Made by a program: the position numbers and the translations under genes
In this document: positions 2,737 through 40,503 of the stretch, piece by piece
Numbering within the stretch: position 1 is the first letter of the stretch
Layout of the letters: the number at the start of each line of letters is the position of its first letter
Origin: Candidatus Cloacimonadales bacterium
GTDB taxonomy: Bacteria > Cloacimonadota > Cloacimonadia > Cloacimonadales > JAFGVF01
NCBI GenBank assembly: GCA_963677495.2
Contig: CAXXOU010000004.1
Coordinates: forward strand, 384,001-448,000
DNA: 64,000 bases
Direction of reading: 5' to 3'
The notes under the pieces: model-generated
Databases searched by the model: none
Told to the model about the DNA's origin: nothing
What the model saw: only the letters and a program-made list of their open reading frames with translations

Positions 2737-2858
2737 CATTAAAAACATGGAACCAGTTAGGACCCACCAAGGAGCCACCAAGGACCCTCCTTGGCGAAGG
2801 TCAAAGTTATCCACACTATGTGTATAACTTCAGTCACGTGTGAAGTAAGTTTTTAATG
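2737..2858. repeat. Composite element 1: outer 10-bp IR + 11-bp phased (C/T)AAGGA array + inverted DnaA-box pair
   Basis: CATTAAAAAC 2737-2746 / GTTTTTAATG 2849-2858; GG cores at 2749, 2760, 2771, 2782; inverted TCCTTGG at 2788. Confidence 0.75.
2804..2830. promoter_or_regulatory. Head-to-head DnaA-box pair, 3-bp spacer
   Basis: TTATCCACA 2807-2815 (perfect box), CTA, TGTGTATAA 2819-2827 (= TTATACACA on minus). Confidence 0.7.
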
Positions 2859-3111
2859 AAGAGCTGTAATAGGGCAATATGATGACACAGAATTTGGAGG
2901 GTATGGTGGCGAGTATAAGATTTGCAGTAATTGGACAATAGAAACAATTACTACAGCAAATAATAACATTGGACAAATTTCACCTCATAGATTATGAATA
3001 GCGACAAATATAACAGTAATACTATCAAATAAAATTATTCAAAAAGTACTTGACGTTTAAACTTGAGTTCATTAAATCAGTAATGTTCTCTCGAACATTG
3101 GAGGTAATATT

Positions 3112-4167
3112 ATGAAAAAAGTATTGTTATGTATTGTCTTGTTCACATTCGTAAGTATGGTCGGATTGTTTGCCTATTCTGAAAATGAAAGCAATAATAC
3201 TCCAGCATCTGCAGATATGATACCTCGGGGGACACTAGCAAATGTAGTTTTATTCTCAGGGAACATTAACCAAGCAGGTGATGTTGATTGGGTAGGAATA
3301 CCATTGAATGATACGAATAATTGTACTATAGATTTTGTATCATTTGGGTCAGCAAATACTAGTGTTGATTTCTATTCAGATGTGCCACCTACAACAGTCG
3401 AAGGTACAGCAACAACAAGTTCCTCTTATACTTCTGCTGAAGTAAATCAAGGAGATGTTCATTATTACATCAGAATCTATGGTACAGCAGCAACTTATCC
3501 ATCCAGTTATCTGATTAGGATAACTAATGAAGATGATAATACTTTCTTAACTCCTGTAACTCTGTCATCATTTATGGCTGTATATACCAATAATGAAGTT
3601 GGAATTACCTGGGTAACCCAATCAGAGTCAAATCTTGCCGGATACAATGTAATACGGAGTGATTCACAAGATATGACAAAAGGTTTAAACGTAAATGGGG
3701 CTATAATCTATGCTCACAATAGTTCATCAATAACAACATACAATTTTAAAGATGAAGAGATTGAAGCTGGAGGCTCATACTATTATTGGCTTGAAGTAGT
3801 AGAGATTGATGGTGGAATTGATTATCACGGACCTGTAAATGTAGAGATAACAGAGGATGATCATGAAGAGGAGACACCTGACTTAGTATACAGAACCGGA
3901 ATAGTCAGTAGTTATCCAAATCCATTCTCACACAATATCGACTTGCAGGTTGAGATGTCAAAGCTAACTGCAATTGAGCTCTCAGTATATAACATTAAAG
4001 GTGAAAAAGTTGATGTCATTCATAATGGCGAACTAACAGAAGGTACTCACACCTTTAACTGGGATGGAAAAGATGTTCATGGCAGAAGTATAGCCAATGG
4101 TATCTATTTCTTCAGATTAGATAGTTATGAGGGTTCATACACTCGCAAAGTAACCTTCATAAAGTAG
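3112..4167 (+). CDS. Secreted protein with FlgD/T9SS-like C-terminal sorting domain
   Basis: GGAGG RBS, signal peptide, PVTLSSF motif, SYPNPFS...YNIKGEKV...WDGKD...GIYF C-terminus. Confidence 0.85.
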   Translation: MKKVLLCIVLFTFVSMVGLFAYSENESNNTPASADMIPRGTLANVVLFSGNINQAGDVDWVGIPLNDTNNCTIDFVSFGSANTSVDFYSDVPPTTVEGTATTSSSYTSAEVNQGDVHYYIRIYGTAATYPSSYLIRITNEDDNTFLTPVTLSSFMAVYTNNEVGITWVTQSESNLAGYNVIRSDSQDMTKGLNVNGAIIYAHNSSSITTYNFKDEEIEAGGSYYYWLEVVEIDGGIDYHGPVNVEITEDDHEEETPDLVYRTGIVSSYPNPFSHNIDLQVEMSKLTAIELSVYNIKGEKVDVIHNGELTEGTHTFNWDGKDVHGRSIANGIYFFRLDSYEGSYTRKVTFIK

Positions 4168-4182
4168 TAACGATTAAGAGAG

Positions 4183-4219
4183 AACGAAAGGGGTGCTTTA
4201 ACAGTATCCCTTTTCGTTT
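4183..4219 (+). terminator. Intrinsic terminator
   Basis: AACGAAAGGGGTGCT / AGTATCCCTTTTCGTT hairpin after stop. Confidence 0.65.
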
Positions 4220-4364
4220 AGCAATTTAAGACTAGGTAGGTAGGCCAAGTACATTACTTACAGATATACAACCACTTGAAAGAATCGTAATAGAAAGTTA
4301 AGGATTATTTAAAAATTCTTATTGACAAGAACAGGACGATTGGAAACTTTAATCTCACATGTGA

Positions 4365-4440
4365 GCGGGAGTAGCTCAGCTGGTAGAGCGCCACCTTGCC
4401 AAGGTGGTTGTCGCGGGTTCGAATCCCGTCTCCCGCTCCA
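4365..4440 (+). tRNA. tRNA-Gly(GCC)
   Basis: Cloverleaf, anticodon loop TTGCCAA, TTCGAAT, encoded CCA. Confidence 0.97.
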
Positions 4441-4448
4441 ATGTAGAA

Positions 4449-4522
4449 GGCGACATCGCCAAGTGGTAAGGCAGAGGTCTGCAAAATCTCCATCCCCGGT
4501 TCGAATCCGGGTGTCGCCTCCA
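4449..4522 (+). tRNA. tRNA-Cys(GCA)
   Basis: GGCGACA/TGTCGCC acceptor, anticodon loop CTGCAAA, CCA. Confidence 0.96.
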
Positions 4523-4541
4523 CAGAATGTTAAAAAATAGT

Positions 4542-4629
4542 GCCGGAGTGGTGGAATTGGTAGACACAAGGGACTTAAAATCCCTCGAGATTCTATCTCG
4601 TGCCGGTTCAAGTCCGGCCTCTGGTACCA
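4542..4629 (+). tRNA. tRNA-Leu(TAA)
   Basis: Anticodon loop CTTAAAA, long variable arm, TTCAAGT, CCA. Confidence 0.96.
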
Positions 4630-4642
4630 ATAATAAAATCGA

Positions 4643-4718
4643 GCGGGAGTAGCTCAGCTGGTAGAGCGCCACCTTGCCAAGGTGGTTGTCGCGGGTTCGA
4701 ATCCCGTCTCCCGCTCCA
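4643..4718 (+). tRNA. tRNA-Gly(GCC), identical second copy
   Basis: Identical to 4365-4440. Confidence 0.97.
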
Positions 4719-4787
4719 TTTTTATCTCAGCACTAATCTTTAATTCTACTCAAATCAATCCAATCTCCCAAAACTTCATAGAATTCC

Positions 4788-4816
4788 TTGACACTCTCTA
4801 CCTTTTGGTTGATAAT
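4788..4816 (+). promoter_or_regulatory. Sigma70-like promoter of the UGPase-MCE operon
   Basis: TTGACA-17bp-GATAAT. Confidence 0.55.
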
Positions 4817-4846
4817 TTCACTTAAATAAGATTACCAGAGGTAAGT

Positions 4847-6241
4847 ATGGATAAAGTTAAACTATTTATGCAGAAAATGGAAAGGGAACAGCTTGGCAAT
4901 GAAGTGGTTGAAACCTTTACTCAATATTTTAACAGTTTCGTTGCTGGTGATAGGGGTTTGTTAACCAATAAAACTATTTCAGCTCCAGAAGAGGGAGATG
5001 TGATTGACTTCATAACTTTGACCGAGAAAAAAAGCGAATACTTATCCAAACTTGCTATCTGTAAACTAAACGGTGGACTCGGAACTTCAATGGGTTTGAC
5101 TAAAGCAAAATCATTGCTCCCTGTGTTCAATACAAATGAAGGTGAAGAGCTTACCTTTCTTGATGTTACATTGAAGCAACTCGAGAGTTTAAGAAAAAAC
5201 GGTAGTTCAACTACATTCCTTTTGATGAATAGTTACAACACGGATGCAGATACAAAAGAAGCAATCTCTAAATACAATTGGTTAGATGAACAGAAGTTAG
5301 ATACATGTTTCATCCAGAATAAATATCCACGCATTAGAAAAGATGATTTTACACCATTAAACCTTGAAGATGAAGGAGCTAACTGGAATCCACCCGGACA
5401 TGGTGACATCTATACTGCACTTTCTGCTACCGGAATTCTTGATAAGCTGATAGCTGAAGGTATTGAGTACTTGTTTGTTTCAAATTCAGATAATCTTGGA
5501 GCAACTCCAGATATAAAGATATTAACTTATCTAATTGATAATAGTATCCCATTCTTGATGGAAGTATGCAGACGTACTGAGATGGATAAGAAAGGGGGAC
5601 ATTTAGCTAGAAGTAATACTGGTAACTTAGTTCTAAGAGAAGTTACTCAATGTCCTGAAGATGAGATTGGGGAGTTTCAGAATATAAACTTATACTCATT
5701 CTTCAACACAAACAGTTTATGGATTAATCTAAAAAGTTTGAAGCAGTTTATGATTGATAACGATGGAAAAATGAAACTACCATTAATTGTTAACCCGAAG
5801 AGTGTTGAAGGGGTTGATGTAATCCAACTTGAAACTGCTATGGGTGCAGCTATAAGTGTCTTTAATGGTGCTAAAGCTCTGGAAGTTCCACGTAGTAGAT
5901 TTATTCCTGTAAAGAAAACTAATGAACTACTTCTTCTATGGAGCGGGGTTTATATATTAAATGAACACTATGAAGTAGAACTCGCTTCTAAGTTCCGAAA
6001 AGCACCCATAATCCATTTAGATCAGAAATATTATAAAACGGTTGATGCATTAAGAGAGAAGATATGGAAACATAAGCCTGATATGAGTCGCTGTAGGTCA
6101 CTTCATATTGATGGAGATGTGTATATTGGAGAGAATATAGCATTTATAGGTGATGTGAGCATAAACGGCTGTGATAATAAGTATGTGATAAACAATCGAA
6201 GATTGGAAGGATTGACACTCTGTCATCCGGAGATGTTTTAG
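4847..6241 (+). CDS. UTP--glucose-1-phosphate uridylyltransferase, eukaryote-type UDPGP family
   Basis: KLNGGLGTSMG..KAKS, WNPPGHGD, SNSDNLGA, QLETAMGAAI, VPRSRFIPVK. Confidence 0.92.
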   Translation: MDKVKLFMQKMEREQLGNEVVETFTQYFNSFVAGDRGLLTNKTISAPEEGDVIDFITLTEKKSEYLSKLAICKLNGGLGTSMGLTKAKSLLPVFNTNEGEELTFLDVTLKQLESLRKNGSSTTFLLMNSYNTDADTKEAISKYNWLDEQKLDTCFIQNKYPRIRKDDFTPLNLEDEGANWNPPGHGDIYTALSATGILDKLIAEGIEYLFVSNSDNLGATPDIKILTYLIDNSIPFLMEVCRRTEMDKKGGHLARSNTGNLVLREVTQCPEDEIGEFQNINLYSFFNTNSLWINLKSLKQFMIDNDGKMKLPLIVNPKSVEGVDVIQLETAMGAAISVFNGAKALEVPRSRFIPVKKTNELLLLWSGVYILNEHYEVELASKFRKAPIIHLDQKYYKTVDALREKIWKHKPDMSRCRSLHIDGDVYIGENIAFIGDVSINGCDNKYVINNRRLEGLTLCHPEMF

Positions 6242-7026
6242 TGACGCTTGACTTTTTTCTGGTAGATAGTTTTACAGAAGATGCTTTTAAAGGTAATCCT
6301 GCAGGTGTTGTTCTGCTTAAGGAAGAAATTGATGAATCAGTAATGCAAAGTATTGCTTCAGAAGTTAACCTCTCTGAGACAGCTTTTGTACTTAGAACAG
6401 ATGAAGGCAGATATAAAATCAGATGGTTTACGCCCACAACTGAAGTGAATCTATGCGGTCATGCAACTTTAGCGGTTGCAAAAGTATTAAACGATGTGTA
6501 TGGGATCTTGCAGTGTTTCTTTGATAGTCGTATGGATAATTTATTTACTAGGTGTAATGATGGTTTAATAGAGTTATTGTTTCCAACTGCACCTGCTGAA
6601 GTAGAATATAACAATAAAGAGTTACTTATGCAGCTACCAGATTTTCTATGTGCGAAGAAATCGGAGTTATTGGACTATGTCGTTGTTGAACTTGCTTCCA
6701 TAGATAGCTTATACAGTTATCAACCAGATAAGGATAGTTTGTTACAGGCTGATAAAATATCAGGTTTGATCTTGACTTGTAGAGATGAAGAATATGACTT
6801 TGTAAGTAGATTCTTTGACCCTTGGGAAGGTATTCTTGAAGATCCGGTAACAGGGTCTGCTCATTGTGTACTTACTCCATATTGGAGAGATAAGTTAGGG
6901 ATGAGGAAATTAAATGCATACCAAGCTTCAACTAGAGGTGGAAGCTTATTTTGTGAAGATAGGGGAGATGTCGTTTCCATTAAAGGAAATGCAAAGATAA
7001 TAATGAAAGGTAAAATAGAGTTTTAA
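6241..7026 (+). CDS. PhzF family isomerase
   Basis: FKGNPAGV, NLSETAF, EVNLCGHAT, EDPVTGSAH. Confidence 0.92.
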   Translation: MTLDFFLVDSFTEDAFKGNPAGVVLLKEEIDESVMQSIASEVNLSETAFVLRTDEGRYKIRWFTPTTEVNLCGHATLAVAKVLNDVYGILQCFFDSRMDNLFTRCNDGLIELLFPTAPAEVEYNNKELLMQLPDFLCAKKSELLDYVVVELASIDSLYSYQPDKDSLLQADKISGLILTCRDEEYDFVSRFFDPWEGILEDPVTGSAHCVLTPYWRDKLGMRKLNAYQASTRGGSLFCEDRGDVVSIKGNAKIIMKGKIEF

Positions 7027-7036
7027 AGGACAGTTT

Positions 7037-7909
7037 ATGAGAGTAAGTAAGGCTCAAAAGATTAGATTAGGCGTTTTCATCTTTAGTGGTTTTCTGCTAA
7101 TTGCACTATTAGTTGTTATAGTTGCAGGAAACAAGTTGATGGAGAAGAGAGACATATACTATGTTGAGTATGAAGACTCCTCTGTTAATGGCTTATCCAC
7201 CGGTGGAGCTGTCAAATACCATGGTATTGATGTTGGACGAGTAGACAAGATAGAGATAAACCCGGAAGATATTACAAAGGTTATTGTTACAATAAGTGTG
7301 GAAAGTGGAACTCCTATAAAAGAGGACGTAGAAGCTACACTTGTGCCTGTAGGAATAACAGGTTTGAAATCAATCGAGTTAACCGGAGGGACAAATGAAG
7401 CGGATTTACTCCCGCCTTCTGCTAGTATTAAACCCGGCTTATCTACATTTGATAACTTAACAGGTAGAGCTGAATCAATTGCTGAAAAATTGGAACAACT
7501 AGTTAGTAATTTGAATGAACTAACTAATCCCCAAACCCAGAAAGATATAAGTCAGATTATAGAAAGTACTAATGAGATAGTTTCTAATAACAAAGAGTCT
7601 ATTAACAGTACTATTTCAAATCTTGAGAGCATTACTAATAATGCAGATATACTTGTTGAGAATCTCTCAACATTCTCTGACTCACTTGGTAACATTAAGA
7701 TCAGTGAGACTGTTTCAAAACTTAATACTACAATAGATAAATCGAATTTGGCAATAACCAACATTGATAGACTTGTTTCAAAAAATAGAGTTAACTTGGA
7801 TGAATCACTAGAAACTCTTAGAGAAACTCTTGAAAGTCTTAATGAGTTTGCAAGACAGATAAATGAAGATCCATCAGTACTACTTCGTGGTAGTTCAGTA
7901 GGGGAGTAG
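7037..7909 (+). CDS. MCE/MlaD family protein with long helical extension
   Basis: N-terminal TM, GLSTGGAVKYHGIDVGRV MCE motif, heptad tail ending PSVLLRG. Confidence 0.9.
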   Translation: MRVSKAQKIRLGVFIFSGFLLIALLVVIVAGNKLMEKRDIYYVEYEDSSVNGLSTGGAVKYHGIDVGRVDKIEINPEDITKVIVTISVESGTPIKEDVEATLVPVGITGLKSIELTGGTNEADLLPPSASIKPGLSTFDNLTGRAESIAEKLEQLVSNLNELTNPQTQKDISQIIESTNEIVSNNKESINSTISNLESITNNADILVENLSTFSDSLGNIKISETVSKLNTTIDKSNLAITNIDRLVSKNRVNLDESLETLRETLESLNEFARQINEDPSVLLRGSSVGE

Positions 7910-7912
7910 AAT

Positions 7913-10033
7913 ATGAACAAGATAAAATTGATCGCTTTACTTGTATTTACACTGACCTTAGTTGCATGTAGTTTCAACAGACAAATAGAGTCTACAAACT
8001 ATTACATACTTGATTATAATGGTTGTAATGAAGAGGAGAACCTTAAGCTTGAAAAGCCATTTGAATTCAGCGTACAAATAAACGAAACAAGGTTGCCAAG
8101 AACTTATGATAGGAATCAGATAGTATCCAAATATACTTTCAACCAGATATCCTACCTTAAACGCCACCTTTGGAGCTCAAAGCTCTATGATGCGATTCCC
8201 AATCTTATTTCACAAAGAATTAAGTGCTACAATATCTTTGAAAGAGTGGATAGAGAATCAACAGTTGAACTTCCTGATTTCTATATTGATACGAATGTCT
8301 CAAACATTGAGCAGTATTTAGATGAAGGTAAGCAGTTTGCACATCTGAAAATTGAGTTTATTCTAAGGAATGGGAATGATAATAAAGAGCTTTTCAATTA
8401 CAGCAATGATAGAACAAAACGAGTTTACTCTGATGGAATCGATGGTGTTGTAAGTACATTGAATGACTTGATCTTGGAAGAAACAAACACATTCAGTAGA
8501 TTGGTAGTAGGTTATTTAAGTAAAAAAGATATTCCAAGTTATGAATTAATATCCAAATTAGGTGAGGCCAATAAAGATTATGAAGAGATAAGTGGTGATA
8601 TAAACAATGTAGGCGAGCTTCTTGTGCCTGCGATTCATGATAGTGAAGTTGAACCTGAATATTACATCTACTCTAAAAGTGGGGACTTTATAGATGTTGG
8701 CGAGATGGGAAAAGTCATTCGATTACCAAAGGGTTTTTACCAGCTAAAGATTGGGACTGACCAAATGATAACTCAAGAAGTCGATGTACAACCGGGCTAT
8801 AGAAGAGTTGTCAAACCGACATGGGGTGTGCTTGATGTAAGTATAATAGATGAAGATAGAAATGACGTTAAAATGAGATATGAAATTTTCCAGGAAGATG
8901 AAGAACGTGTTAGGTCATTTGGTACTTACTATAGCTCAAGTGATAGAATAACTGAACCATCTGATGCTCATGTATTGCTTCCCGGTATGTATAAACTCAC
9001 TATTAATGGCCGTCCTTTCAATACATATATAGATTTTACTTCTGTTACTATTTCTGAAGATCAGACATATGAACTGACTTTAGTAGTCGAATCATTAGAC
9101 GAAAATGAAGTAACCGCTTCTCGAAAGCTTCTTGGTGCGGGTATTATTAGAGCTGAATCTGATCGCAGAGAGAATCAATATGGCAAATGGGATAATGCTG
9201 TTTACGTTATTGCAAACTTTAACTCTGACAACAAGACAGCAGAAGATGATCGTAAAACTTCAATGACTTTCATCGGTGAATTTGATAACCAGTTTGAATA
9301 CGAGAAGGGACCATTCCATTACAGTATGAAAAGCTTGTATAGTATTGAACTTAACTGGGAAACTGATGAAGACTTCAAAGTCAAGAATGATGATTATAAT
9401 CTTGAGAATACTGTAATCTACAATGTTATGGGTGATCTTGGTGTCTATGGTAGGGTGGATCTTGCCAGCCATTTCACTCCTACTTATGATTATATAAGTA
9501 GTGGTGAAACTCGTGATATTGAGATTAGAGATGTTGATAATGAAATGACAGAGTATTTGTCAGATAAGGATAAGTTCAAGTTTCAACCTATGTTCTTCCC
9601 GCTTGTGCTGAAAGAAGGTGCCGGTTTGAATTATAGATTGTTCCAAAACGTAAGTTCTCTTAAAATGAGTGTTAGAGGTGGTATTGGTTGGGAACAGGAG
9701 ATCTATCATGATACCTATACTCAGCAAAGCAACTCAGATACATTATATGTTTACCGTGAACAAGAAAATGATTTTACTACCGGTTTTGAGCTTTCAGCTT
9801 TAGGCACATTGTCAATGAAGAAACTACCTGTTGATTACACACTAAGTGCTGATTTTCTCTTCCCATTTGATGCTAATGATGAAGCTAAATATGACATTGA
9901 GAATATCCTCACACTGAATTTGATAAAGAATGTTTCCTGGGATATTAAAGCCACATTCACAAAGGGTGTACAAGGCAGAGATTACTGGGTTCTTGATTAC
10001 GGTACTTTCTTAAGATTGTCCCTATTCTACTAA
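7913..10033 (+). CDS. Lipoprotein: PqiC/ABC_trans_aux-like N-domain fused to a putative outer-membrane beta-barrel
   Basis: Lipobox LVAC; NYYIL..LPRTYDRNQIV..HLWS PqiC-like segment; amphipathic strands and terminal FLRLSLFY. Confidence 0.65.
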   Translation: MNKIKLIALLVFTLTLVACSFNRQIESTNYYILDYNGCNEEENLKLEKPFEFSVQINETRLPRTYDRNQIVSKYTFNQISYLKRHLWSSKLYDAIPNLISQRIKCYNIFERVDRESTVELPDFYIDTNVSNIEQYLDEGKQFAHLKIEFILRNGNDNKELFNYSNDRTKRVYSDGIDGVVSTLNDLILEETNTFSRLVVGYLSKKDIPSYELISKLGEANKDYEEISGDINNVGELLVPAIHDSEVEPEYYIYSKSGDFIDVGEMGKVIRLPKGFYQLKIGTDQMITQEVDVQPGYRRVVKPTWGVLDVSIIDEDRNDVKMRYEIFQEDEERVRSFGTYYSSSDRITEPSDAHVLLPGMYKLTINGRPFNTYIDFTSVTISEDQTYELTLVVESLDENEVTASRKLLGAGIIRAESDRRENQYGKWDNAVYVIANFNSDNKTAEDDRKTSMTFIGEFDNQFEYEKGPFHYSMKSLYSIELNWETDEDFKVKNDDYNLENTVIYNVMGDLGVYGRVDLASHFTPTYDYISSGETRDIEIRDVDNEMTEYLSDKDKFKFQPMFFPLVLKEGAGLNYRLFQNVSSLKMSVRGGIGWEQEIYHDTYTQQSNSDTLYVYREQENDFTTGFELSALGTLSMKKLPVDYTLSADFLFPFDANDEAKYDIENILTLNLIKNVSWDIKATFTKGVQGRDYWVLDYGTFLRLSLFY

Positions 10034-10034
10034 T

Positions 10035-11839: not shown

Positions 11840-11852
11840 GTTAGCTGGTAAA

Positions 11853-12305
11853 CTAGATATTTTTTAAATCACCTAATAGATATTCCTTATCCTCAGCTTT
11901 ATCTATTGACTCAGCTTCTTTTTTACCTAAAGCAATATACTCATCTTTCTTAGTATTGTCACCAAGTACACTATATGCTCTTGCAACTGCTTCATATGCG
12001 AATGCTTTGTTAAAACCTGTCATATCATTGTCTACACAGATTTGTAAGGACCTTAAACCATGCTTTAATGCTGATTCACCCATCTTTGCGATTGCGTATA
12101 CTCTAGAAACCTGCCATTCTCCGGTATAAATCTGTGTTGGCCCTCCAATCTGCATCCAATGGTACAAAGATGCATGAGCCATGTGAATCATCTCTAAATC
12201 TTGTTCAGGAGTTCTATCTGTCTTATCGATATATTCCCAAGTTCCATTAAATAGATTAACTGCAAAATACTTATGAATTTTTTCCATTTTAGCTTTATCT
12301 GCCAT
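11853..12305 (-). CDS. Conserved hypothetical helical protein
   Basis: GGAGG RBS; protein-like composition (AHASLYHW, EWQVSRVY). Confidence 0.75.
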   Translation of the reverse strand: MADKAKMEKIHKYFAVNLFNGTWEYIDKTDRTPEQDLEMIHMAHASLYHWMQIGGPTQIYTGEWQVSRVYAIAKMGESALKHGLRSLQICVDNDMTGFNKAFAYEAVARAYSVLGDNTKKDEYIALGKKEAESIDKAEDKEYLLGDLKNI

Positions 12306-14917: not shown

Positions 14918-15265
14918 ACAAAACGCAGTCATCCCACTGTTTTCCCACTGTGCACCCACTGTGCACCCACTGAAACAGTGGGTTGACAGTGCCTTCACAG
15001 TGCAGACACAGTGCAGGCACAGTGCGTTGATGGATAGAGTAGTTAAAGAGTGCAAAAAGGGCATTAAGTATAGCTAAGTAATTGTAAAATGCACTGTGTA
15101 TGTTTTTCTGGAGCTGTCGCAATAGCGACCGGAGGGAGATGGCGAATAGCGGAAATGGTGAATGTACATCACTATGAGTCAAATTCCCTTCGGTCGCTAT
15201 GACTCCAATGATGTAAGTCATTGCAAATTGCACTGCGTATCATATTTAGAATCAGTTACCACTTC
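14918..15265. repeat. ~345-bp dispersed repeat, copy A (11-bp CACTG/CAGTG array + REP-like hairpins)
   Basis: CACTG at 14935/46/57/68, CAGTG at 14976/87/98, 15009/20; aligns end-to-end with the reverse complement of 23244-23590. Confidence 0.9.
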
Positions 15266-15395: not shown

Positions 15396-15406
15396 ATAAA
15401 CAGTAG

Positions 15407-20327: not shown

Positions 20328-20616
20328 TGTGTTCTCCTTGATTAGTTATATTTTTATGTCCTAATAATATCGCCAATACTTATAATATACCATAAATCCT
20401 AATGTCAAGCAAAATCTCTTTTGATTATTACTGTGAGAGCTAAGATTATTTTCTTCACTTTTCTGTCAATCTAACACTGTAATGATCTTATCTGGTAAAG
20501 TTACTAACCAAAACAAACCAATATAATGCTAAATTCATTTAAGATGTTATACCATTTTATGCGAGATTGAACATGTCTTTTTTTCTATGAAATGTGGCAT
20601 ACCAATGGCATTCTTG

Positions 20617-20699
20617 ACAACGGGTTGACCACGGGTAATCCACGGGTTGACCACGGCTTCTGTGGTTTGGGCGTGGATTACCCGTGGTTCAGCCGTGGT
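20617..20699. repeat. 11-bp phased inverted array (CCACGG / CCGTGG)
   Basis: ACGG at 20620/31/42/53; (C/T)GTGG at 20661/72/83/94; centre CCACGG-CTT-CTGTGG. Confidence 0.9.
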
Positions 20700-23253: not shown

Positions 23254-23590
23254 TGCTACATAATTACATACACAGTGCGATTACCAATAACTTACAACGT
23301 TGGAGTCATAACGAGTTTACGAGTTGGACTCATAGCGTTGTACCTTTGCCACTTTTCGCTATTCGCCCATCTCCCTTTGGTCGCTATTGCTACAGCTTCA
23401 GTTTACTCACACAGTGTCATTTGCAATAACTTAGCTACATTTCTTGCCCTTTTTACTCTCTTTCACTGCTCTATCCATCAACGCACTGTGCACGCACTGT
23501 GATACCACTGTGAAGGCACTGCCAACCCACTGTTTCACTGGGTGCACAGTGCGTGCACAGTGGGAAAACAGTGGGATGACTGCGTTTTGG
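23244..23590. repeat. ~345-bp dispersed repeat, copy B (inverted relative to copy A)
   Basis: Reverse complement matches 14918-15265 including the 11-bp array. Confidence 0.9.
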
Positions 23591-30716: not shown

Positions 30717-30717
30717 T

Positions 30718-30985: not shown

Positions 30986-30990
30986 TAAAG

Positions 30991-33900: not shown

Positions 33901-34110
33901 GAGTATTGAGTATACTTTCCATCCATCATTATCTAATAGAGTGTAACCGTCAGAAGTTTCAGACCAGTGAATCCACTCATCACCCATCTGCTTGATTGTT
34001 AAGGTGGAACCATCCGGTTGAATGTACTCTATTAATCTTTTAGGTGCAGGAACTGACATCAAACTCATTACTAATACGGATATAAGTATAATCATTACTA
34101 ACTTTTTCAT
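30991..34110 (-). CDS. M6 (immune inhibitor A) metalloprotease with cleaved-adhesin-like domain and CTD
   Basis: GGAGG RBS, signal peptide, QPDG..GDE propeptide, HEFGHLLGLPD, WDLMSSG, NDDWLISP, CYPNPFNP. Confidence 0.92.
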   Translation of the reverse strand: MKKLVMIILISVLVMSLMSVPAPKRLIEYIQPDGSTLTIKQMGDEWIHWSETSDGYTLLDNDGWKVYSILNSKGDMIPSKVRASAIESRSSEETTFIQTISKHLRFSSQQCVVKREANRTTRLGNFPTSGNVDILVIPAQFTDYNMSYTTNSFENMMNNPGNFTGCFKSYYEENSYGTFSPTATVSPIVTVNNTHDYYGPQDQWRTFATHAVQAANAYVNFADFDNDNDNTVEGVIIIHAGQGQETSGSANDIWSHMSNFSIPVNVDGVTVSHYAIVGESGSWGLQAGVGVSAHEFGHLLGLPDYYNTTSGEDPDCVGEWDLMSSGAWNNNSWEPAHHNAWSKYFLGWMDREILEVPDNYSITHSNSNNTAYAIETPGYNEWFYLENRQQIGYNGSVPGHGLLIVHVDEGYILQHLSSNDVNNSNHKGLQIESANGELNSYSAPFPHGTNDAFTDETDPASLTWNNQPTDRPVESITESGQVITFDYWNGPGYNPLMIPTTLNGYLTDENNVYLEWSMPNILGSDYFELSYSNLELDEHFNLGIDTSFEVGCKYESSDLADYEGLYLHRVRFYANDTTCSYTLNVYNESDGSLSLSQAIPEINPIGFTDVLIETPFTPNADNDIIVAIEASSGANATFGSDNVTYDEGISDLIRVNDNWQSAHDDYDWNGDWLIEIVLTDAGYTRSYIPDSYNLYKNGSLLANIDDWEQTSYLEIGPEEGLEEYYVTSVYAEGESEQSNTETVNIDFNLSPTPWTDDFEVYTDFTQDLYPWHSADLDQTQNYPMNVTFPGNGASTSFILFNPSATVPPLSGNWTPHSGAKEMVAFSANSSNGSTNDDWLISPNYDVIENSAFSFFAKTIDDSYGNDRIRVMISTGSTNPEDFVQLSSGDYLEPPEQWTEYAFSLTDFIGQRVRVAINCITEDAIALAIDDCTFDQRVVSNDENQQAIKNTKLIGCYPNPFNPTTGISFYLDKQQNVSLEVFNVRGQHVRTLVNDVKPQGNHSVSWDGLDSSNQATASGVYFYKLKAGSYTKSKKMVLLK

Positions 34111-34269
34111 TGTACCTCCAGAGAAGCTGATACATAAATATGAAAACCTAATTCTATGCGTCAATAAATACTTTATTACTTAGGCTGTTAGGATATGTTT
34201 TTGTGAGAATGAAAAAACGGGTAAAGCGACCATTCTAAAAGTAGTAACATGAACTATGAGTCGATTCGT

Positions 34270-34310
34270 AAGTGTACCATTTAGAAGGTTTACAACCATT
34301 CTAAAGGTAG
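34270..34310. repeat. Degenerate copy of the 30892-30931 REP
   Basis: AAGTGTACCATTTAGAAGGTTTACAACCATTCTAAAGGTAG. Confidence 0.65.
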
Positions 34311-34348
34311 TTTAAATGCAATTCATTTATCCGTTTTTTCCAAAATTG

Positions 34349-34522
34349 CCCTGCTTCTTCCCTTCCAGTTCCCTGACATGGAAAGGTGTTTCAAAGGTTT
34401 CCCACAGGTGACCCTCTCGTGACCCTCTCGTGGAATGCCATAAGTTATTCACATCGTGTGGATAACTTGAATATTTATGGAAAACCTTCATTAGTCAGGG
34501 AACCGGAAGGGGGGGAGACAGG
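34349..34522. repeat. Composite element 2: outer IR + 11-bp phased arrays + inverted DnaA-box pair
   Basis: CCCT at 34349/60/71; GT-core at 34386/97, 34408/19/30; TTATTCACA-TCG-TGTGGATAA 34445-34465; IR 34360-34377 / 34494-34511 (1 mismatch). Confidence 0.8.
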
Positions 34523-34664
34523 CACAAATCAATTTCAATCAAAACCGGGTAGGTTTACCTTGGTATCATTTAGAAGTTCCTAATTCATAATTAGTAATTC
34601 TATTCGTAACTCATCATTAACACAAAACTTAAGAAGTAGAATGAAAATAGTTGCAATTTTTTAT

Positions 34665-34693
34665 TTGACATGATTTCGGTGATTAAATAGGTT
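34665..34693 (+). promoter_or_regulatory. Sigma70-like promoter for tRNA-Asp pair
   Basis: TTGACA-17bp-TAGGTT. Confidence 0.55.
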
Positions 34694-34740
34694 GCTTTCA
34701 CACGCAGTTGGCGTGGATATAGAGTGAATTAAGAGTATGC

Positions 34741-34817
34741 GGGGGTGTAGTTCAGTTGGTTAGAACGTCTGCCTGTCACGCAGAAGGTCGCGAGTTCGAG
34801 TCCCGTCACTCCCGCCA
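34741..34817 (+). tRNA. tRNA-Asp(GTC)
   Basis: GGGGGTG/CACTCCC acceptor, anticodon loop CTGTCAC, G73-CCA. Confidence 0.96.
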
Positions 34818-34854
34818 GTTTTTAAAACAAGCATACTCATTAATAGATCCCTTT

Positions 34855-34931
34855 GGGGGTGTAGTTCAGTTGGTTAGAACGTCTGCCTGTCACGCAGAAG
34901 GCCGCGAGTTCGAGTCCCGTCACTCCCGCCA
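34855..34931 (+). tRNA. tRNA-Asp(GTC), second copy
   Basis: Same as 34741-34817 except one variable-loop base. Confidence 0.96.
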
Positions 34932-34935
34932 GTTT

Positions 34936-34969
34936 AAAAAGCCTATTCACGAAAGTGGATAGGCTTTTT
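34936..34969 (+). terminator. Intrinsic terminator of tRNA-Asp operon
   Basis: AAAAAGCCTATTCAC-GAAA-GTGGATAGGCTTTTT. Confidence 0.85.
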
Positions 34970-34974
34970 CTATA

Positions 34975-35160
34975 TGAAGTTAACCGACTGCTTGTCGGGG
35001 CGTAGCTTTTAGCGAAGACTGATGTCGGTTTGCCTTGTAACGCATAGTTAAGTAGCTGATTGTATCGTAATTATTACCATCAAAGGTTACATGGCAGTAG
35101 CATCGACACAGACGATGCAGTCCAAAAGTGCTAACCCCGAAAGAGTTACCTCTGAGTAGC
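34975..35160. repeat. REPIN-like repeat, left copy (with nested insertion)
   Basis: GTTAACCGACTG[...]ATGTCGGTTTG...GGTTACATGGCAGTAGCATCGAC..GATGCAGTCCAAAAGTGCTAACCCCGAAAGAGTTACCTCTGAGTAGC matches 39425-39578. Confidence 0.8.
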
Positions 35161-35327
35161 TAAAAAAGTGATAGTACGATTTCACTTAAACATTTTGTAA
35201 ACCACTTCACATTCAACTAAAAAACTTCTTGTGTTCTAAAGATAATTGGAAATAGTATGTCACCAAGAATATCGGATGGAGATCTTAATGATACTCGGTG
35301 AGAAGGTCTTGCTAAAGGTGGTGTAGT

Positions 35328-36107
35328 ATGAGTAAATTATTCGACAGGCCAAAAGTAGTTCTTTATGTTTGTGTATCTATAGATGGGAGAATTACATTCG
35401 GGCCAAATACAACAATGTTTGATGCTTTTAACCTACCTGAACTTCATCAAATGCTTTGCACAAATGAAGAATGGGAAATCTTTTCTAAAGCAGTATTTTC
35501 TATTCATAAACCTGATATGTTTCTGGAAGGGAGTAATATGGTAGTAGCTGAAAATGAAGCATTAAAGGAACTTCCTAAATTCAAGGAAGACATAAATAAT
35601 TTGTTTGAAGATTTTATACCGGAATATATTTTGAACCATAAAAACAGAAAAACATGGACAGCAATAGTTGATGGAAGAGGTAGATTTCGAAATGGCTATA
35701 CGGCCGTTACAGATGACCCTGAAACATATATGGTACATCTTACAACCGAAACTGTTCCTCCCGATTATCTGGCTTTTTTGAGGTCAAAAAATATTCCTTA
35801 CATCATAGAAGGGCAGAATAAAGTTAACCTTCCTAAAGCATTGCAAAAAGTAAAAACAAAACTCAATGTAGATACAATTGCAACAAGCTCCGGTGGACGC
35901 TTGAGTGGTGCCCTTATTAGAAGTTCTCTCCTTGACGAGGTAAATTTACTACTCAGCCCTATAGTGATAGGAGGAGATAAAACACCTAAACTATTTACTT
36001 CTCCTGAATTGAATTGGCCTTCAATAAAACCTAGTATACTCACCCTTTTAGAGATGAAAGATATGAAGAATGGTAAGGTCTGGTTAAGGTATAAAGTTAA
36101 TTCCTAA
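35328..36107 (+). CDS. RibD C-terminal/DHFR-like reductase
   Basis: RPKV..VSIDGRI, IVDGRGR, GGRLSGAL..LLDEVNLLLSP. Confidence 0.82.
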   Translation: MSKLFDRPKVVLYVCVSIDGRITFGPNTTMFDAFNLPELHQMLCTNEEWEIFSKAVFSIHKPDMFLEGSNMVVAENEALKELPKFKEDINNLFEDFIPEYILNHKNRKTWTAIVDGRGRFRNGYTAVTDDPETYMVHLTTETVPPDYLAFLRSKNIPYIIEGQNKVNLPKALQKVKTKLNVDTIATSSGGRLSGALIRSSLLDEVNLLLSPIVIGGDKTPKLFTSPELNWPSIKPSILTLLEMKDMKNGKVWLRYKVNS

Positions 36108-36125
36108 TCAATTTTCATGTCTTAA

Positions 36126-36665
36126 ATGAATAACATTATAATTAGATACGCAACACTTTCAGATGCGAAAGCTATTACAGAACTGAAAGTTTCATGTTGG
36201 AAATCAGCATATCGGGGGATATTACCGGATGAGATGCTTGAAAAGTCTTCTGAACAGATGAAGAATGAAACTGAACATCGCGCAAAATGTATTGTAGAGA
36301 ACACTGATAATGGTTGGCCTAATATTGTTGCTGTACATTCTGGTCAAGTTATAGGATGGTGTGCCGGAGGGGTTAATCAAAATCCTGCATATAAACATGA
36401 AACTGATTTACAGGCAATATACATTCTTAAGGAGTACCAAAGAAAGGGCATAGGTAAGCTAATGGTAAAGGCATTTATTGATTTAATGCATGAACACGGT
36501 ATGCAATCAATGCTCATCTGGGTTCTAAAAGAGAATCACAATGCTATTAGATTCTATACAAAACTTGGTGGCAAGATAGTAGGAGAGAAGCTGTATCTCA
36601 AAAAGTATCCCGTGATAGGATTTGGTTGGGATGATGTAAAACAATTGGGGAGGAATAGTGGATAA
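36126..36665 (+). CDS. GNAT family N-acetyltransferase
   Basis: QRKGIGK acetyl-CoA motif, WVLKENHNAIRFY. Confidence 0.9.
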   Translation: MNNIIIRYATLSDAKAITELKVSCWKSAYRGILPDEMLEKSSEQMKNETEHRAKCIVENTDNGWPNIVAVHSGQVIGWCAGGVNQNPAYKHETDLQAIYILKEYQRKGIGKLMVKAFIDLMHEHGMQSMLIWVLKENHNAIRFYTKLGGKIVGEKLYLKKYPVIGFGWDDVKQLGRNSG

Positions 36666-36757
36666 GGAATTTGGCTCATTTAGTCACATACAGCTCAATG
36701 TCACTTCAAACATGTGATTCGACTATTTCCTCAAGATAATATATATATTTTCAGATC

Positions 36758-37318
36758 CTATATATTAACCACAGATCTCCAATACATCTTAAATGAGGAC
36801 TCTAAGAACTCATCAGTGTATTTATCAGGCATTATGTTTAGAAATGTGATAGTTGAGTTTGCAGCACCCATTGTGTAGATCATCAAGTAATTGATATCTT
36901 CATATATAATTGCACCATCCTCTACTGCATTTCTAAATACTTCAGCAAAGAAATCAAAGTGCTTTGAGGCTTCTTCAACTGTAGAAGACTTGATGTTAGT
37001 AGAACCAGAGAAGTTAATAAAGAATCTCATTAACTCTTTGTTCTCATATCCCCATTTTATATATGACTTCCAATAACTAAAAAGAGTATTCTTATGAGAT
37101 TCACTAAAATCCATATTCTCTTGGATATAGGTTGCAATGGTTACTTTAGCATAGAAATAAGCAGAATTAATCAATTCATCTTTATTCTTGAAATAGTGGA
37201 ACACTGTCCCATTGGATAATCCTGATCCCTTAACTATCTTTGCAACAGATGCTCCATTGAACCCAAACTCCAGGAAAATCTTTATGGCTGACTCTAATAT
37301 TTTCTCTCTATTACTCAT
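36758..37318 (-). CDS. TetR/AcrR family regulator
   Basis: REKILESA..F...GF..ASVAKI...SGLSNGTVFHYFKNKDEL. Confidence 0.92.
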   Translation of the reverse strand: MSNREKILESAIKIFLEFGFNGASVAKIVKGSGLSNGTVFHYFKNKDELINSAYFYAKVTIATYIQENMDFSESHKNTLFSYWKSYIKWGYENKELMRFFINFSGSTNIKSSTVEEASKHFDFFAEVFRNAVEDGAIIYEDINYLMIYTMGAANSTITFLNIMPDKYTDEFLESSFKMYWRSVVNI

Positions 37319-37380
37319 AATTACCTCTAACTCAATAGCTGTTTCTTAACTTTTTTTGTCAAGCCATAAATATAGAAAAA

Positions 37381-37465
37381 TAGAGAGTCTACTCTAATAT
37401 TAAGCAGGATGTATAGTGCAGAGGTATATAAATATCTTGACAGTAGAGTGAATGCTCTATAGCCT
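37381..37465. promoter_or_regulatory. Two TAGAG-N6-CTCTA operators; second lies in a TTGACA-17-TAGCCT promoter spacer
   Basis: TAGAGAGTCTACTCTA 37381-37396; TAGAGTGAATGCTCTA 37444-37459. Confidence 0.7.
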
Positions 37466-37510
37466 GTCTCCAGATTATGAAGAATAGTGTGATGTTTAGA
37501 AGGAGTGAAA

Positions 37511-38302
37511 ATGAAAACATTATATTTTACAGCTACAGGTAATAGCTTGCATATTGCTAAATCGATAGGCGGAGAGTTGCTCTCAATCCCGAAAATGGTT
37601 AAAGAGGGGATATTTGAGTTTACTGATGATAAGGTAGGTATTGTGTTTCCGGTTTATGGACACGGAGTCCCTTCCTATGTAGTAGATTTCTTAGAGAAAG
37701 CTAAGTTCAATACAAACTACCTCTTCGCAGTTGCAACATTTGGGGTTTACTCAGGTGCAGTAGCCACTCACATAATTGATGTCAGCAAGCAAGCAGGATA
37801 TTCCTTTTCCTACATAAATGCAATCTCGATGGTTGATAACTACTTACCAACTTTTGACATGAAGAAGGAGATAGCGAATGAGCCTAAGAAGAAAGTCGAT
37901 GAGAACCTTAGACAAATAAAGGCAGATATTGCCAGTTCAAAGAAATGGGTAATCCGTGAAAACTTCTTGCGGAAGCAGGGATTTAAGCTTCTGCATAGTA
38001 GGAAGAAACCCTTTAGTAAAAAACAGTTAAAGCTTCATATATATGGGGAAGGGATTGAGAACTATCAGTATAATGATAACAACTGCACCGGTTGTGGAAT
38101 CTGTGCAAAAGTATGCCCTGTGGACAATATTGTCGTAGATAGAGAGAATAAGAAGATAGAGCTTCAAAACAAGTGCTTCGCATGCTTTGCCTGCATCCAG
38201 AATTGTCCCTCACAGGCTATTCATATCAGAGGTGAGGTAAACGGTAACAGATACAGAAATAAAGATATTAATCTACAAGAGATAATCAAAGCAAATGATT
38301 AG
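37511..38302 (+). CDS. EFR1-type flavodoxin/4Fe-4S ferredoxin
   Basis: YFTATGNS, CTGCGICAKVCP, CFACFACIQNCP; AGGAG RBS. Confidence 0.87.
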   Translation: MKTLYFTATGNSLHIAKSIGGELLSIPKMVKEGIFEFTDDKVGIVFPVYGHGVPSYVVDFLEKAKFNTNYLFAVATFGVYSGAVATHIIDVSKQAGYSFSYINAISMVDNYLPTFDMKKEIANEPKKKVDENLRQIKADIASSKKWVIRENFLRKQGFKLLHSRKKPFSKKQLKLHIYGEGIENYQYNDNNCTGCGICAKVCPVDNIVVDRENKKIELQNKCFACFACIQNCPSQAIHIRGEVNGNRYRNKDINLQEIIKAND

Positions 38303-38320
38303 ATTACGAGGAGAGTAATA

Positions 38321-39268
38321 ATGGATTATAGCTTTGGAAAGAATGGTTGGACACCGGATAGAATTAGGGACTTAACAGGCAAAACATTCCTAATAACAGG
38401 TGCTACAAGTGGCACAGGTTTTGAAGCAGCTAAGATACTTGCATCCAAAGGTGCAAAAGTAGTAATGCTAAACCGGAACCCTAAGAAATCAGAAGGTGTG
38501 ATTGCAACTATCAAACAGGAAATCGGTAGCAAAGCAGATGTTTCTTACATAACTATGGACCTTGGAGTTCAAGCTTCAGTAAAAAAGGCAGCATCAGAGG
38601 TATTGAATACAGTTTCACGCATCGATGCTTTGATGTGTAATGGAGCGATAGCACAAGTACCCAAGCAACAGTTCACAGTGGATGGTTTTGAGAGCCAGCT
38701 TGGTGTTAATCACTATGGACACTTTACTCTACAAGCCCTGCTCTTTCCCTTGATCGAGAAATCTAAAGGTCGAATAGTTACGGTGGGAAGTATGGGCTAT
38801 AATATGGGCATTAAAACAATCAAGTTCGACGATATGAACTGGGATAAGAACTATAAACCAAACGATGCTTATAGTCAGAGTAAACTAGCGCAGATAATGT
38901 CTATTTATGAATTGCAGGATAGATTAGCTAAAGCCGGCAGAACAGATGTTAAAGCTTATGCCTGCCATCCCGGCTCCTCAAAAACATCACTCATAACAAC
39001 AAGTGGTAATCTGGCAACTCGCATCATGTTTAAACTAATGACCTTATCACCGATGGTTCAATCCGCAGAGAAAGGAGCATATCCTGAACTTATGTGTGCT
39101 ACAGAACCTAATCTTGATCAGAAAGGTTTCTATGGTCCGACAGGTCGCAGTTACTGGGTAGGTCCGGTAGGCGAGTGTAAGCTTGAACCACATGCAAAGG
39201 ATAAGAAAGTATCAAAGAGATTATGGGAAGTCTCAGAGAAAGCAACTGGTATTAAGTGGGATATATGA
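38321..39268 (+). CDS. SDR family oxidoreductase
   Basis: ITGATSGTG, DGFESQLGVNHYGHF, YSQSK, CHPG. Confidence 0.92.
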   Translation: MDYSFGKNGWTPDRIRDLTGKTFLITGATSGTGFEAAKILASKGAKVVMLNRNPKKSEGVIATIKQEIGSKADVSYITMDLGVQASVKKAASEVLNTVSRIDALMCNGAIAQVPKQQFTVDGFESQLGVNHYGHFTLQALLFPLIEKSKGRIVTVGSMGYNMGIKTIKFDDMNWDKNYKPNDAYSQSKLAQIMSIYELQDRLAKAGRTDVKAYACHPGSSKTSLITTSGNLATRIMFKLMTLSPMVQSAEKGAYPELMCATEPNLDQKGFYGPTGRSYWVGPVGECKLEPHAKDKKVSKRLWEVSEKATGIKWDI

Positions 39269-39269
39269 A

Positions 39270-39545
39270 TATGGATTTAACCGACGATGTCGGTCAAAAT
39301 GTGGAGTTAACCGACTGCGTCGGTTTGTCTTGTAATAGATAGTTTATTGGCAAAAATTAGTTTCATTATGCTTTCTGAAGGTTACATTGGCAGTTGCATC
39401 TACATAGTATATGCAGTCCAAAATATGGAATTAACCGACAATGTCGGTTTGTCCTGTGGCTCTTGGTTTAATGGCTAATTTTGTTTCATTATGCTTTCTG
39501 AAGGTTCCATTGCAGTTGCATCTACATAGTATATGCAGTCCAAAA
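39270..39545. repeat. Tandem ~124-bp REPIN units (TGGAGT-led palindromes)
   Basis: Units at ~39301 and ~39425; TAACCGAC-N3-GTCGGT and GCATCTAC-ATA-GTATATGC-AGTCCA; extra half at 39272. Confidence 0.85.
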
Positions 39546-39549
39546 GTGC

Positions 39550-39940
39550 TAACCCTGAAAGGGTTACCTATGAGTAGCACCGAATACAATTCGGGGTTTA
39601 GGAATACAGATTTATCCTAACCCCAACGGGGTTAAATTTGTTCAAGATTATGTTATGGCATATTCGACCCCGTTGGGGTCGCTGGCTCTTATGGGACATC
39701 CGACCATGCATTGCATGGCTACTCACATGCTATCCCTCTGGGATAAGCAAAGAGGACAGCAATAATGCTACCCTCATTTAACATAATCTCATACTTCAAG
39801 AAATGTGGGATAATGGCTTCAATGTTTATTAGCTGACTTATGTTATAGCATTTTATCCTGAAGGGATAACCTAATAATAGCCATGGTGCTTTAGCTCATG
39901 GATAAGATTTGATTTCCAAATCCCGACCCTGAAGGGGTCG
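39550..39940. repeat. Multi-hairpin REP-like elements (AACCC..GGGTT / CGACCCC..GGGGTCG type)
   Basis: Hairpins at ~39551, 39619, 39665, 39731, 39854, 39924; TGAGTAGC/GCTACTCA inverted linker. Confidence 0.75.
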
Positions 39941-40182
39941 CCCTTTTCACAGAATAACAATTTCAAAATTATCAATCACAATGAAATCTAAACAATTATC
40001 ACCCCTCATTGCACCATCACAATACCCAACCAGAAGTTGTCCGATTCCGGTGAGTCTCTTGAGGCTCTCTGGGGAAAATTAATAAGAGACTGACAAGATA
40101 AGGGGTAGAAAATGAAAGCTAATGTATCATTATTATGATAGTGGAATGAGAGACTCCAGCATTGCAATGAGAGCATAAACCA

Positions 40183-40332
40183 TTCCCCAGAACCACCAGA
40201 TTCATCTGGTGGCTTTGAACCATGTTTAAGCTTAATCCCCTCCCTCTTCGCTTTCCTAATGAAAGCGTAGAGGGAGGGGAGGAAAATAGTTTTAGAGTAC
40301 CTCCACCACTTGAAAGTGGTGGTTCTGGGGAA
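40183..40332. repeat. Nested inverted repeat (CCACC REP pair enclosing a CCCCTCCCTCT hairpin)
   Basis: TTCCCCAGAACCACCA 40183 / TGGTGGTTCTGGGGAA ending 40332; inner hairpin 40237-40279. Confidence 0.8.
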
Positions 40333-40373
40333 GCCAATATCCTATAGCCACTAAATATTACTACTCAATCGCT

Positions 40374-40503
40374 CCCTTTCAATTCCAACTCGACACTTAC
40401 TTCTCACTTACTAGACACTTACTACTCTCTTACTCAAACCAGTAAGTTAGACACAAGTTGTTGATAACTAACTAGATTTTGAATAGTATTTATTGAATGG
40501 GAG
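40374..40503. repeat. Composite element 3: outer IR + 11-bp CTTACT array + degenerate DnaA-box pair
   Basis: CTTACT at 40396, 40407/18/29; AGTAAG 40441; TTAGACACA-AGT-TGTTGATAA 40447-40467; CTCCCTTTCAA / TTGAATGGGAG flanks. Confidence 0.7.

Follow-up and report, generated by a model that had tools for sequence, protein, structure and literature searches.

The window analysed here is a 64,000 nt stretch of the genome of a Candidatus Cloacimonadales bacterium (G000:C4:384001-448000), and it contains three copies of a non-coding element in which an 11 bp-phased array of short words is followed by a predicted inverted pair of DnaA boxes. Approximately 77 copies of this element, of fixed geometry, are present in the host genome (G000; 3.41 Mb in four contigs, C1 to C4, whose order along the chromosome was inferred from skew). 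The best explanation, to which we give about an even chance, is that the elements are orphan copies of the promoter-operator of a gene for a ~150 aa protein, co-bound by DnaA and amplified genome-wide. For each repeat family, the likely ancestor is the control region of one particular copy of that gene. An operator is the simplest account of the gene linkage, the concordance between array word and gene clade, the covariation of the dyad halves and the promoter of the gene-linked copies.

G000 was compared with three further genomes of its genus (G001 to G003) and with a sister-genus genome (G004). Coordinates within an element are counted from the first base of DnaA box 1. Intergenic location was judged by a crude open reading frame (ORF) call, and the number of elements ranges from 76 to 78 across tests, as two copies (one with a shortened array, one with a 5 bp spacer) were added by hand in some. 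No description of the element was found in a literature search with limited coverage of subscription papers.

Organisation and distribution of the elements

An earlier note, made from the window alone, had reported three palindromes with a 3 bp spacer, each 3′ of an 11 bp array. All three were recovered, with box 1 starting at 2807, 34445 and 40447, with the spacer in each, and next to arrays found by Tandem Repeats Finder at 2759-2787, 34408-34432 and 40394-40434. The outer inverted repeats that it described likewise exist at all three elements, although the third begins at 40372, not 40374. They had been called unrelated to the rest, but they are centred on the axis of the inner dyad of the array, which lies 9.5 bp ahead of box 1. 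The AAG flank noted beside the boxes is the terminal part of the second word of that dyad. The window contains one copy each of families C, A and D, with the following features.

2737..2858 (+): element 1, family C, 122 bp from outer hexamer to outer hexamer; orphan copy flanked by parB and an FlgD-domain gene
2737-2746/2849-2858: outer inverted arms of element 1
2745..2794 (+): 11 bp array of element 1, words CCAAGG/CCTTGG
2789..2806 (no strand): inner dyad of element 1, word-N6-word′, CCTTGG/TCAAAG, imperfect; axis 2797.5
2807..2827 (no strand): predicted inverted DnaA-box pair of element 1, 3 bp spacer
2853..2858 (+): right outer hexamer of element 1, TTAATG; there the family C copy linked to a gene carries TTGACT, which is -35-like
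34347..34524 (+): element 2, family A, with long arms 34347-34393/34478-34524; between divergent M6 peptidase and tRNA-Asp genes
34383..34432 (+): 11 bp array of element 2, GTGACCCTCTC; in family A, but in no other, its -47 unit is DnaA-box-like
34427..34444 (no strand): inner dyad of element 2, CTCGTG/CATAAG; axis 34435.5
34445..34465 (no strand): predicted inverted DnaA-box pair of element 2, 3 bp spacer
34491..34496 (+): right outer hexamer of element 2, TTAGTC; gene-linked family A copies have TTGACC
40372..40503 (+): element 3, family D, outer arms 40372-40383/40492-40503
40385..40434 (+): 11 bp array of element 3, word CTTACT
40429..40446 (no strand): inner dyad of element 3, perfect, CTTACT-N6-AGTAAG; axis 40437.5
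40447..40467 (no strand): predicted inverted DnaA-box pair of element 3, decayed, with 3 mismatches to consensus

The earlier note had proposed a genome-wide check of adjacency between box pairs and arrays. In G000 a lag-11 array adjoins 76 of 80 pairs that have at most 3 mismatches, far more than chance would give: at 4 mismatches none of 48 pairs has one, and of randomly chosen positions 1.8 % do. The spacer is 3 bp in 75 cases, any other spacer from 0 to 12 occurs at most once, and a reversed control pattern of the box pair has no match in this genome. Four families make up the copies in G000: A (24), B (35), C (6) and D (11-12). Inverted pairs number 75 in G000, 14 in G001 and 58 in G002 (at most 1 mismatch), and 66 in G003 (at most 2 mismatches); none of 198 other genomes of the phylum has more than 2. 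The expansion is restricted to the host's genus and is present in all four of its genomes, and within the genus the proposal of dispersed box-pair modules tied to arrays holds. The array words vary from species to species. The 341 arrays of G000 also include approximately nine additional families that have no box pair, among them CACTG/CAGTG with 68 arrays.

The inner dyad consists of a word at -18 to -13, a 6 bp spacer and the complementary word at -6 to -1, and the word recurs leftward in 11 bp steps, three to five times more. The two halves co-vary across families (CTTACT/AGTAAG, CTTGAT/ATCAAG, CTTAGT/ACTAAG, CTCGGG/CCCGAG). Among 105 copies, pairing is kept as the word changes in 68 % of cells vs 47 % after shuffling of the halves; the dyad of family B is imperfect. 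The axis of the dyad, at -9.5, is also that of the outer arms in families A, B, C and D and in 11 G001, 15 G002 and 7 G003 copies; mean complementarity is 0.57-0.69 there, and no other axis exceeds 0.47. A constant span of 122 bp is set by the hexamers at -70 and +46. With arms and dyad on one axis and the span fixed, the element is therefore a single symmetric unit, in which the box pair stands in for the array's mirror words on the right side. Complementarity of a copy's own arms slightly exceeds that between copies in A (p=0.011) and B (p=0.0006), and not significantly in C and D. The left half of family B shows no linkage to the right (r 0.10, against 0.42 and 0.63 for comparisons within one side); linkage of the halves is lost in B and D and not clearly in A, and recombination of copies in the core would be expected to produce the loss in B and D.

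Folding of the whole element is modest (z -2.9, -2.3 and -1.0). Primosome assembly of the ABC type uses a hairpin of single-stranded DNA with a DnaA box in its stem. As a candidate for the elements this was rejected: both free positions match in just 32 of 105 copies.

The palindrome as a predicted DnaA site

The palindrome is a DnaA site by inference, and binding of DnaA to it is predicted. The earlier note had identified it as a DnaA-box pair, an identification that several lines bear out. Host DnaA contains the single PF08299 domain of G000 and keeps the domain IV recognition residues R399, D433, H434, T435 and T436, with Lys at P423. The box consensus TTATNCACA also occurs at the host's oriC and dnaA promoter, and the oriC downstream of dnaA uses TTATCCACA, TTATACACA and TTATGCACA, variants found in the elements. 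An inverted pair with the 3 bp spacer precedes the AAA domain of dnaA by ~350 bp in all five sister-genus genomes checked; in G004 it is 58 bp upstream of the dnaA start codon. The same 27-mer was found at at least 115 metagenome loci (at least 75 distinct). Among the matches listed, 36 of 75 distinct loci have at least 3 extra boxes and 9 of 115 have the array type of the host's genus. Where flanks were scanned (70 of the 108 listed ORFs, 53 loci), dnaA was found at 10 loci and a ribonucleotide reductase gene at 2. The elements contain 94 of the 154 perfect DnaA boxes of G000 (61 %).

That the palindrome is instead the operator of another dimeric regulator seems very improbable. In its favour, the best-documented double boxes of E. 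coli form a tandem, not an inverted, motif (PMC11317965). Against another regulator stand the identical inverted pair before dnaA in the five sister-genus genomes, the dnaA flanks at 10 of the 53 metagenome loci scanned among matches listed, and the behaviour of position 5, the free base of the DnaA box, which varies independently between the two halves. Array units were also compared with column-permuted units as candidate degenerate, low-affinity DnaA boxes in one register and rejected as such, the signal being weak and limited to A (p=0.02, against 0.89 in B, 0.39 in C and 0.90 in D).

Linkage to a family of ~150 aa proteins

The ~150 aa protein belongs to the largest paralog family of G000, with 22 copies; none lies in the window, and the nearest is 5.5 kb past its end. 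Of 41 related genomes 28 contain the family, a search at E<=0.001 gave 367 representatives of it, a scan of a genome collection with one distant homologue gave 3 loci, and its matches in a protein atlas are to Cloacimonadota clusters only. No Pfam, PHROG or PDB sequence match was obtained. The predicted model (pLDDT, predicted local distance difference test, 96) has a beta-hairpin followed by five helices; Foldseek gave no match at E<=0.001 in its pdb and viral searches and the wide VIA search none at Z>=5. The best fold match has Z 3.9, and many of the weak matches are ribbon-helix-helix proteins (Z 2.8-3.9), aligned over the helical part only. Residues K2, G14, R33, Y72 and L109 are near-invariant, Arg33 and Tyr72 across 141 homologues.

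A tree of 40 rows, with one broken G001 row omitted, joins the genes behind A, B and C and their G001 to G003 counterparts in a group of 11 rows (support 80/85, drawn open; subclades 99/93 and 99/97). Among the 10 genes of this clade with upstream DNA, from four genomes, 9 have a pair element upstream in the same orientation and in the order array, pair, gene. Among background genes, 89 of 651 have one within 1.3 kb (binomial 1.5e-7 for 9/10), and because two pairs of rows are near-duplicates there are approximately seven independent cases of gene and element. For each of the families A to D, a copy stands in front of the family's own paralog, in the order array, pair, gene; the linked paralogs are those at C2:33661 (A), C1:522547 (B), C4:692506-692958 (C) and C4:777579 (D). 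Two D-type elements lie upstream of other paralogs.

Of the 15 genes in the larger clade, 14 are preceded by an array family at most 1.3 kb upstream (10 of 15 at most 600 bp) vs 288 of 651 in the background; in the other clade 1 of 7 genes has an array upstream. Eleven different array families precede the 14 genes of the larger clade. Orthologues retain their word, as seen for C and for CACTG in both G000 and G001. The A and B paralogs have no orthologue in G001 (87 % read), and A and B signatures number 1 and 0 there vs 21 and 34 in G000. Six of the seven largest array families of G001 have one copy upstream of a paralog. Homologues in other families have upstream arrays at 6 of 14 loci (five at p<0.004, the sixth at 0.017). 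Thus one distinct cognate gene per repeat family, beside a member of that family, is the rule, with two families excepted.

Additional observations were made at individual paralogs. Upstream of paralog C4:1447755, and likewise of its orthologue in G001, lies a CACTG copy. The paralog at G000:C4:469520-469766 is broken, with the C-terminal half present, and immediately follows an array that belongs to a small family. In G000:C2:33661-34500 and C3:24324-25160 a paralog and the family A element upstream of it have recently been duplicated jointly; the two can therefore move as a single unit. A TATA(A/T)TA(T/G)AGAGG-like motif occurs shortly upstream of many of the ~150 aa genes across families, including the clade that lacks arrays (L195, L196, L200, L336, L337, L340 and L344).

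The arrays recall type II plasmid centromeres (parC-ParR): direct repeats lie upstream of a small gene, with paralog-specific words, and ribbon-helix-helix, putative for the ~150 aa protein, is the fold of many of its weak matches. ParR of R1 requires 11 bp repeats (PMC9426499). Unlike that system, the present arrays are chromosomal, occur in dozens of copies, and have no ParM among the listed (unannotated) flanking ORFs.

Putative promoters of gene-linked copies and a proposed mechanism

On a simple sigma70-like promoter score, the gene-linked copies rank 1 and 2 of 24 in family A, 1 of 35 in B, 1 of 6 in C and 1 of 11 in G001, and all of these have TTGACN at +46, in the right arm. Orphan copies, including the three of the window, have TTAATG, TTAGTC or TTGAAT at this position. 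Linked copies of G002 score 15.5-16, except for the D-type one. The promoters of dispersed copies are decayed relative to those of the gene-linked copies.

The mechanism that we propose begins with the ~150 aa protein binding the 11 bp-phased words of its own family while DnaA binds the inverted pair alongside. The earlier note had postulated a second protein on the phased array, which is plausible, and the candidate is now this protein, a predicted binder. It would nucleate at the dyad and extend cooperatively along one face of the helix. Together with DnaA, which would sit between array and promoter, it would control the promoter of its own gene. The ~75 promoter-decayed copies would then serve as docking sites dispersed over the chromosome, could act as crossover points in rearrangements and, as a side effect, would titrate DnaA.

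Several observations weigh against the operator explanation. CCCGTT (27 copies in G000) and CTCGGG (14 in G001) have no paralog-linked copy in the DNA read. Of the 14 loci in other families, which were chosen as top-scoring hits in genomes without a background estimate, 8 have no clear array. The promoter-scoring window was selected after examples had been seen; the D-linked copy ranks 8 of 11; a strict scan found no promoter at the C-linked copy of G000, where the -10 is poor; and one unlinked G003 copy equals the linked copies in score. DNA binding by the ~150 aa protein is deduced from gene context because there is no sequence match and the fold matches reach Z 3.9 at most. Finally, repeats and ~150 aa genes may gather at the same variable loci.

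Such gathering is part of an alternative that we consider rather unlikely, in which the elements resemble MITEs (transposable elements of the miniature inverted-repeat type), are moved by an unrelated transposase and pile up at variable loci that also hold the ~150 aa genes, with the outward -35 of a terminal repeat captured as promoter. The genus-restricted expansion (14-75 pairs per congener), the terminal inverted arms and the fast turnover of intergenic DNA are in its favour. It leaves unexplained the concordance of words with clades across genomes, the 11 families before 14 genes and the arrays before homologues in other families. No partner was found either: RAYT, serine and extra tyrosine recombinases were sought and rejected as candidates, the two tyrosine recombinases of G000 are its only ones, and serine recombinase PF00239 (IS607 TnpA) has 0 matches in G000, G001 and G002. 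There are 14 Y1 transposase genes in G000, several with repeat families of their own, and a comparison of insertion sequence ends with the elements that covered RAYT-like flanks showed that these 14 carry other repeats at their flanks. Accessory genes are only modestly commoner at gaps with an element (54 of 74 vs 286 of 481).

Genomic position and gene-order breakpoints

All copies are intergenic, with one overlap, and family A prefers divergent gaps (14 of 24, p=0.0015). Synteny was assessed between G000 and the 87 % of G001 that was read, from 1513 orthologue pairs at 80 % identity. Of the junctions that contain a pair element, 11 of 75 retain their gene order; of those that contain other arrays, 28 of 143 do. 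Where orthologues are directly adjacent and the gap is at least 200 bp, order is kept in 2 of 17 pair-element, 15 of 55 other-array and 73 of 116 array-free junctions (pair-element vs array-free, p=1e-4); of the G001 elements, 0 of 11 lie in syntenic junctions. The elements thus mark gene-order breakpoints between species. There is no signal of a target-site duplication in families A or B, no clean empty site in G001, which is too diverged to show one, and no joint in the contigs of four sequencing runs from one sample.

These data also bear on the proposal that the ~150 aa protein is a small new transposase or recombinase that moves the elements in a RAYT-like role, with DnaA as a host factor coupling movement to replication, as at the ends of Tn5. 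In its favour are the breakpoints just described, the unlinked halves of family B, the rigid symmetric 122 bp geometry with a 6 bp spacer, the near-invariant Arg33 and Tyr72, the presence of one distinct paralog per repeat family as in RAYT-REPIN systems (PMC3337134), and the DnaA site within the outside end of Tn5/IS50 (PMC3347997). Nevertheless the protein has neither a conserved His pair nor an acidic triad, its listed matches include no HUH, tyrosine or serine recombinase fold, and duplicated target sites, clean empty sites and joints were all lacking, within the scopes given above. We regard such an enzyme as unlikely. The likeness to Tn5/IS50 extends to a DnaA site within a mobile-element end, but the present elements have no linked transposase and their boxes are internal, not terminal.

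In REPIN-RAYT systems, intergenic families of palindromes are dispersed and each goes with a single distinct small gene (PMC3337134), and the elements share both the dispersed palindromic families and the position of a family member beside a distinct small gene. They differ in that their linked protein is something other than a Y1/HUH transposase (it has no Pfam match and no conserved His), in having 11 bp-phased arrays and a DnaA pair as units, in lying upstream only, where the element contains the gene's likely promoter, and in that the real RAYT-like genes of G000 have other repeats. By the features compared, the organisation appears REPIN-RAYT-like and the arrays recall parC-ParR, yet the elements would belong to neither group.

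Relation to the origin and to DnaA titration

The true oriC lies at G000:C1:869630-869910, downstream of dnaA, and is confirmed by trios, the skew minimum and three nearby parS-like sites. A probable lipoprotein gene, not dnaN, follows oriC in G000, G001 and G002, and no box cluster was found downstream of dnaA in G004. The gidB-parA-parB genes (window 296-2511; C4 at 385 kb) are far from oriC and from the parS-like sites (C1, 869-898 kb), a position consistent with heavy rearrangement.

The elements had also been proposed as origin-like units, an idea that does not agree with the real origin lying elsewhere and with 52 of 77 elements having no further box within 300 bp. Nor, when checked as the note had suggested, do they cluster at oriC, and the copies show no strand bias with replichore. 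None of the 59 copies of families A and B lies in C4 700-1200 kb, the 0.5 Mb that surround the inferred terminus (p=9e-5, for a region picked post hoc). Spacing is more even than expected on C1 (p<5e-5) and C3 (p=0.004) and fails to be so on C2 and C4. The coefficient of variation (CV) of pair-element spacing is 0.61 vs 0.91 for random positions, and the pair set, one of 28 tried, is also more evenly spaced than subsets drawn at random from the array sites (p=0.004). The idea that even spacing is specific to DnaA sites was rejected on its control, as box-less arrays are evenly spaced too: CACTG is the most evenly spaced family (CV 0.53), and arrays taken together are also even.

The reading advanced in the earlier note, selection of the elements as chromosome-wide sites of DnaA titration or nucleotide switching similar to datA or DARS, is improbable. 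It gains from the share of perfect boxes that sit in elements, from the spacing, from the absence of A and B around the inferred terminus, and from the opposite orientation of the boxes, which agrees with that of DARS1 boxes I and II. DARS1, DARS2 and datA of E. coli likewise place two oppositely oriented boxes outside oriC, and in DARS a 5 bp gap lies between boxes I and II, with box III adjacent (PMC6868365). The elements differ by a spacer of 3 bp, the lack of an adjacent third box and a copy number of ~77 vs one or two. IHF sites are not enriched (2 of 76 elements vs 20 of 671 in the background) by the E. coli consensus, from which the preference of host IHF/HU may differ, and host DnaA has Asn at the position of Gln208; the identification with DARS or datA is thus not upheld. 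Further points against selection for titration are the restriction of 14-75 copies to one genus with at most 2 elsewhere, the even spacing of box-less arrays, the lack of even spacing on C4, and site positions that are not conserved among congeners.

Titration of DnaA is reported for E. coli (PMC12371093), and early initiation follows deletion of six DnaA-box clusters in B. subtilis (PMC2533591, PMC3245932). The B. subtilis clusters are likewise DnaA sites outside oriC, but they are few, conserved and multi-box (PMC2533591), whereas the present sites are many, have two boxes within a repeat and do not keep their positions between congeners. In the present genus, titration is likely a side effect of the elements, not a shown function.

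Other features of the window

Besides the three elements, a further 10-11 bp array with the flipping word GGAC/GTCCAC lies at 2557-2622, directly after parB and 115 bp before element 1. Box-less CACTG/CAGTG copies are located at 14932-15025 and 23480-23562. The segments 20614-20698, 40569-40659 and 56263-56289 match words of the box-less families CCACGG, CACTTGG and CAAGGG, each of which has a copy upstream of a ~150 aa paralog elsewhere. REP-like repeats at 39268-39545 and 40180-40335 resemble the flanks of Y1 transposases C2:265320 and C4:22181. One gene of the window has a 66 % identical homologue that its source labels Candidatus Zophobacter, and the clusters matched in the protein atlas belong mostly to Cloacimonadota. 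A 1583 aa ORF occupies 41549-46300 in a low-GC stretch and has no Pfam match at 1e-5.

Implications

Unexplained genome-wide repeats are here tied to a candidate reader protein of unmatched fold, which yields testable pairs of protein and site. More tentatively, and with somewhat less than even confidence, Cloacimonadota may harbour undescribed repeat-and-reader systems in which paralogs each own a private 11 bp word and spread or maintain dozens of cognate sites along the chromosome. One clade would have wired DnaA into its system, so that the two proteins co-occupy ~77 evenly spaced loci that set breakpoints and hold most of the high-affinity DnaA capacity. The tie between repeats and reader would, if true, be a second, non-transposase example of a partnership of the REPIN-RAYT type, the purpose of which is an open question. 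The congeners, which range from 14 to 75 strong double DnaA sites, would additionally constitute a natural experiment on titration of the initiator.

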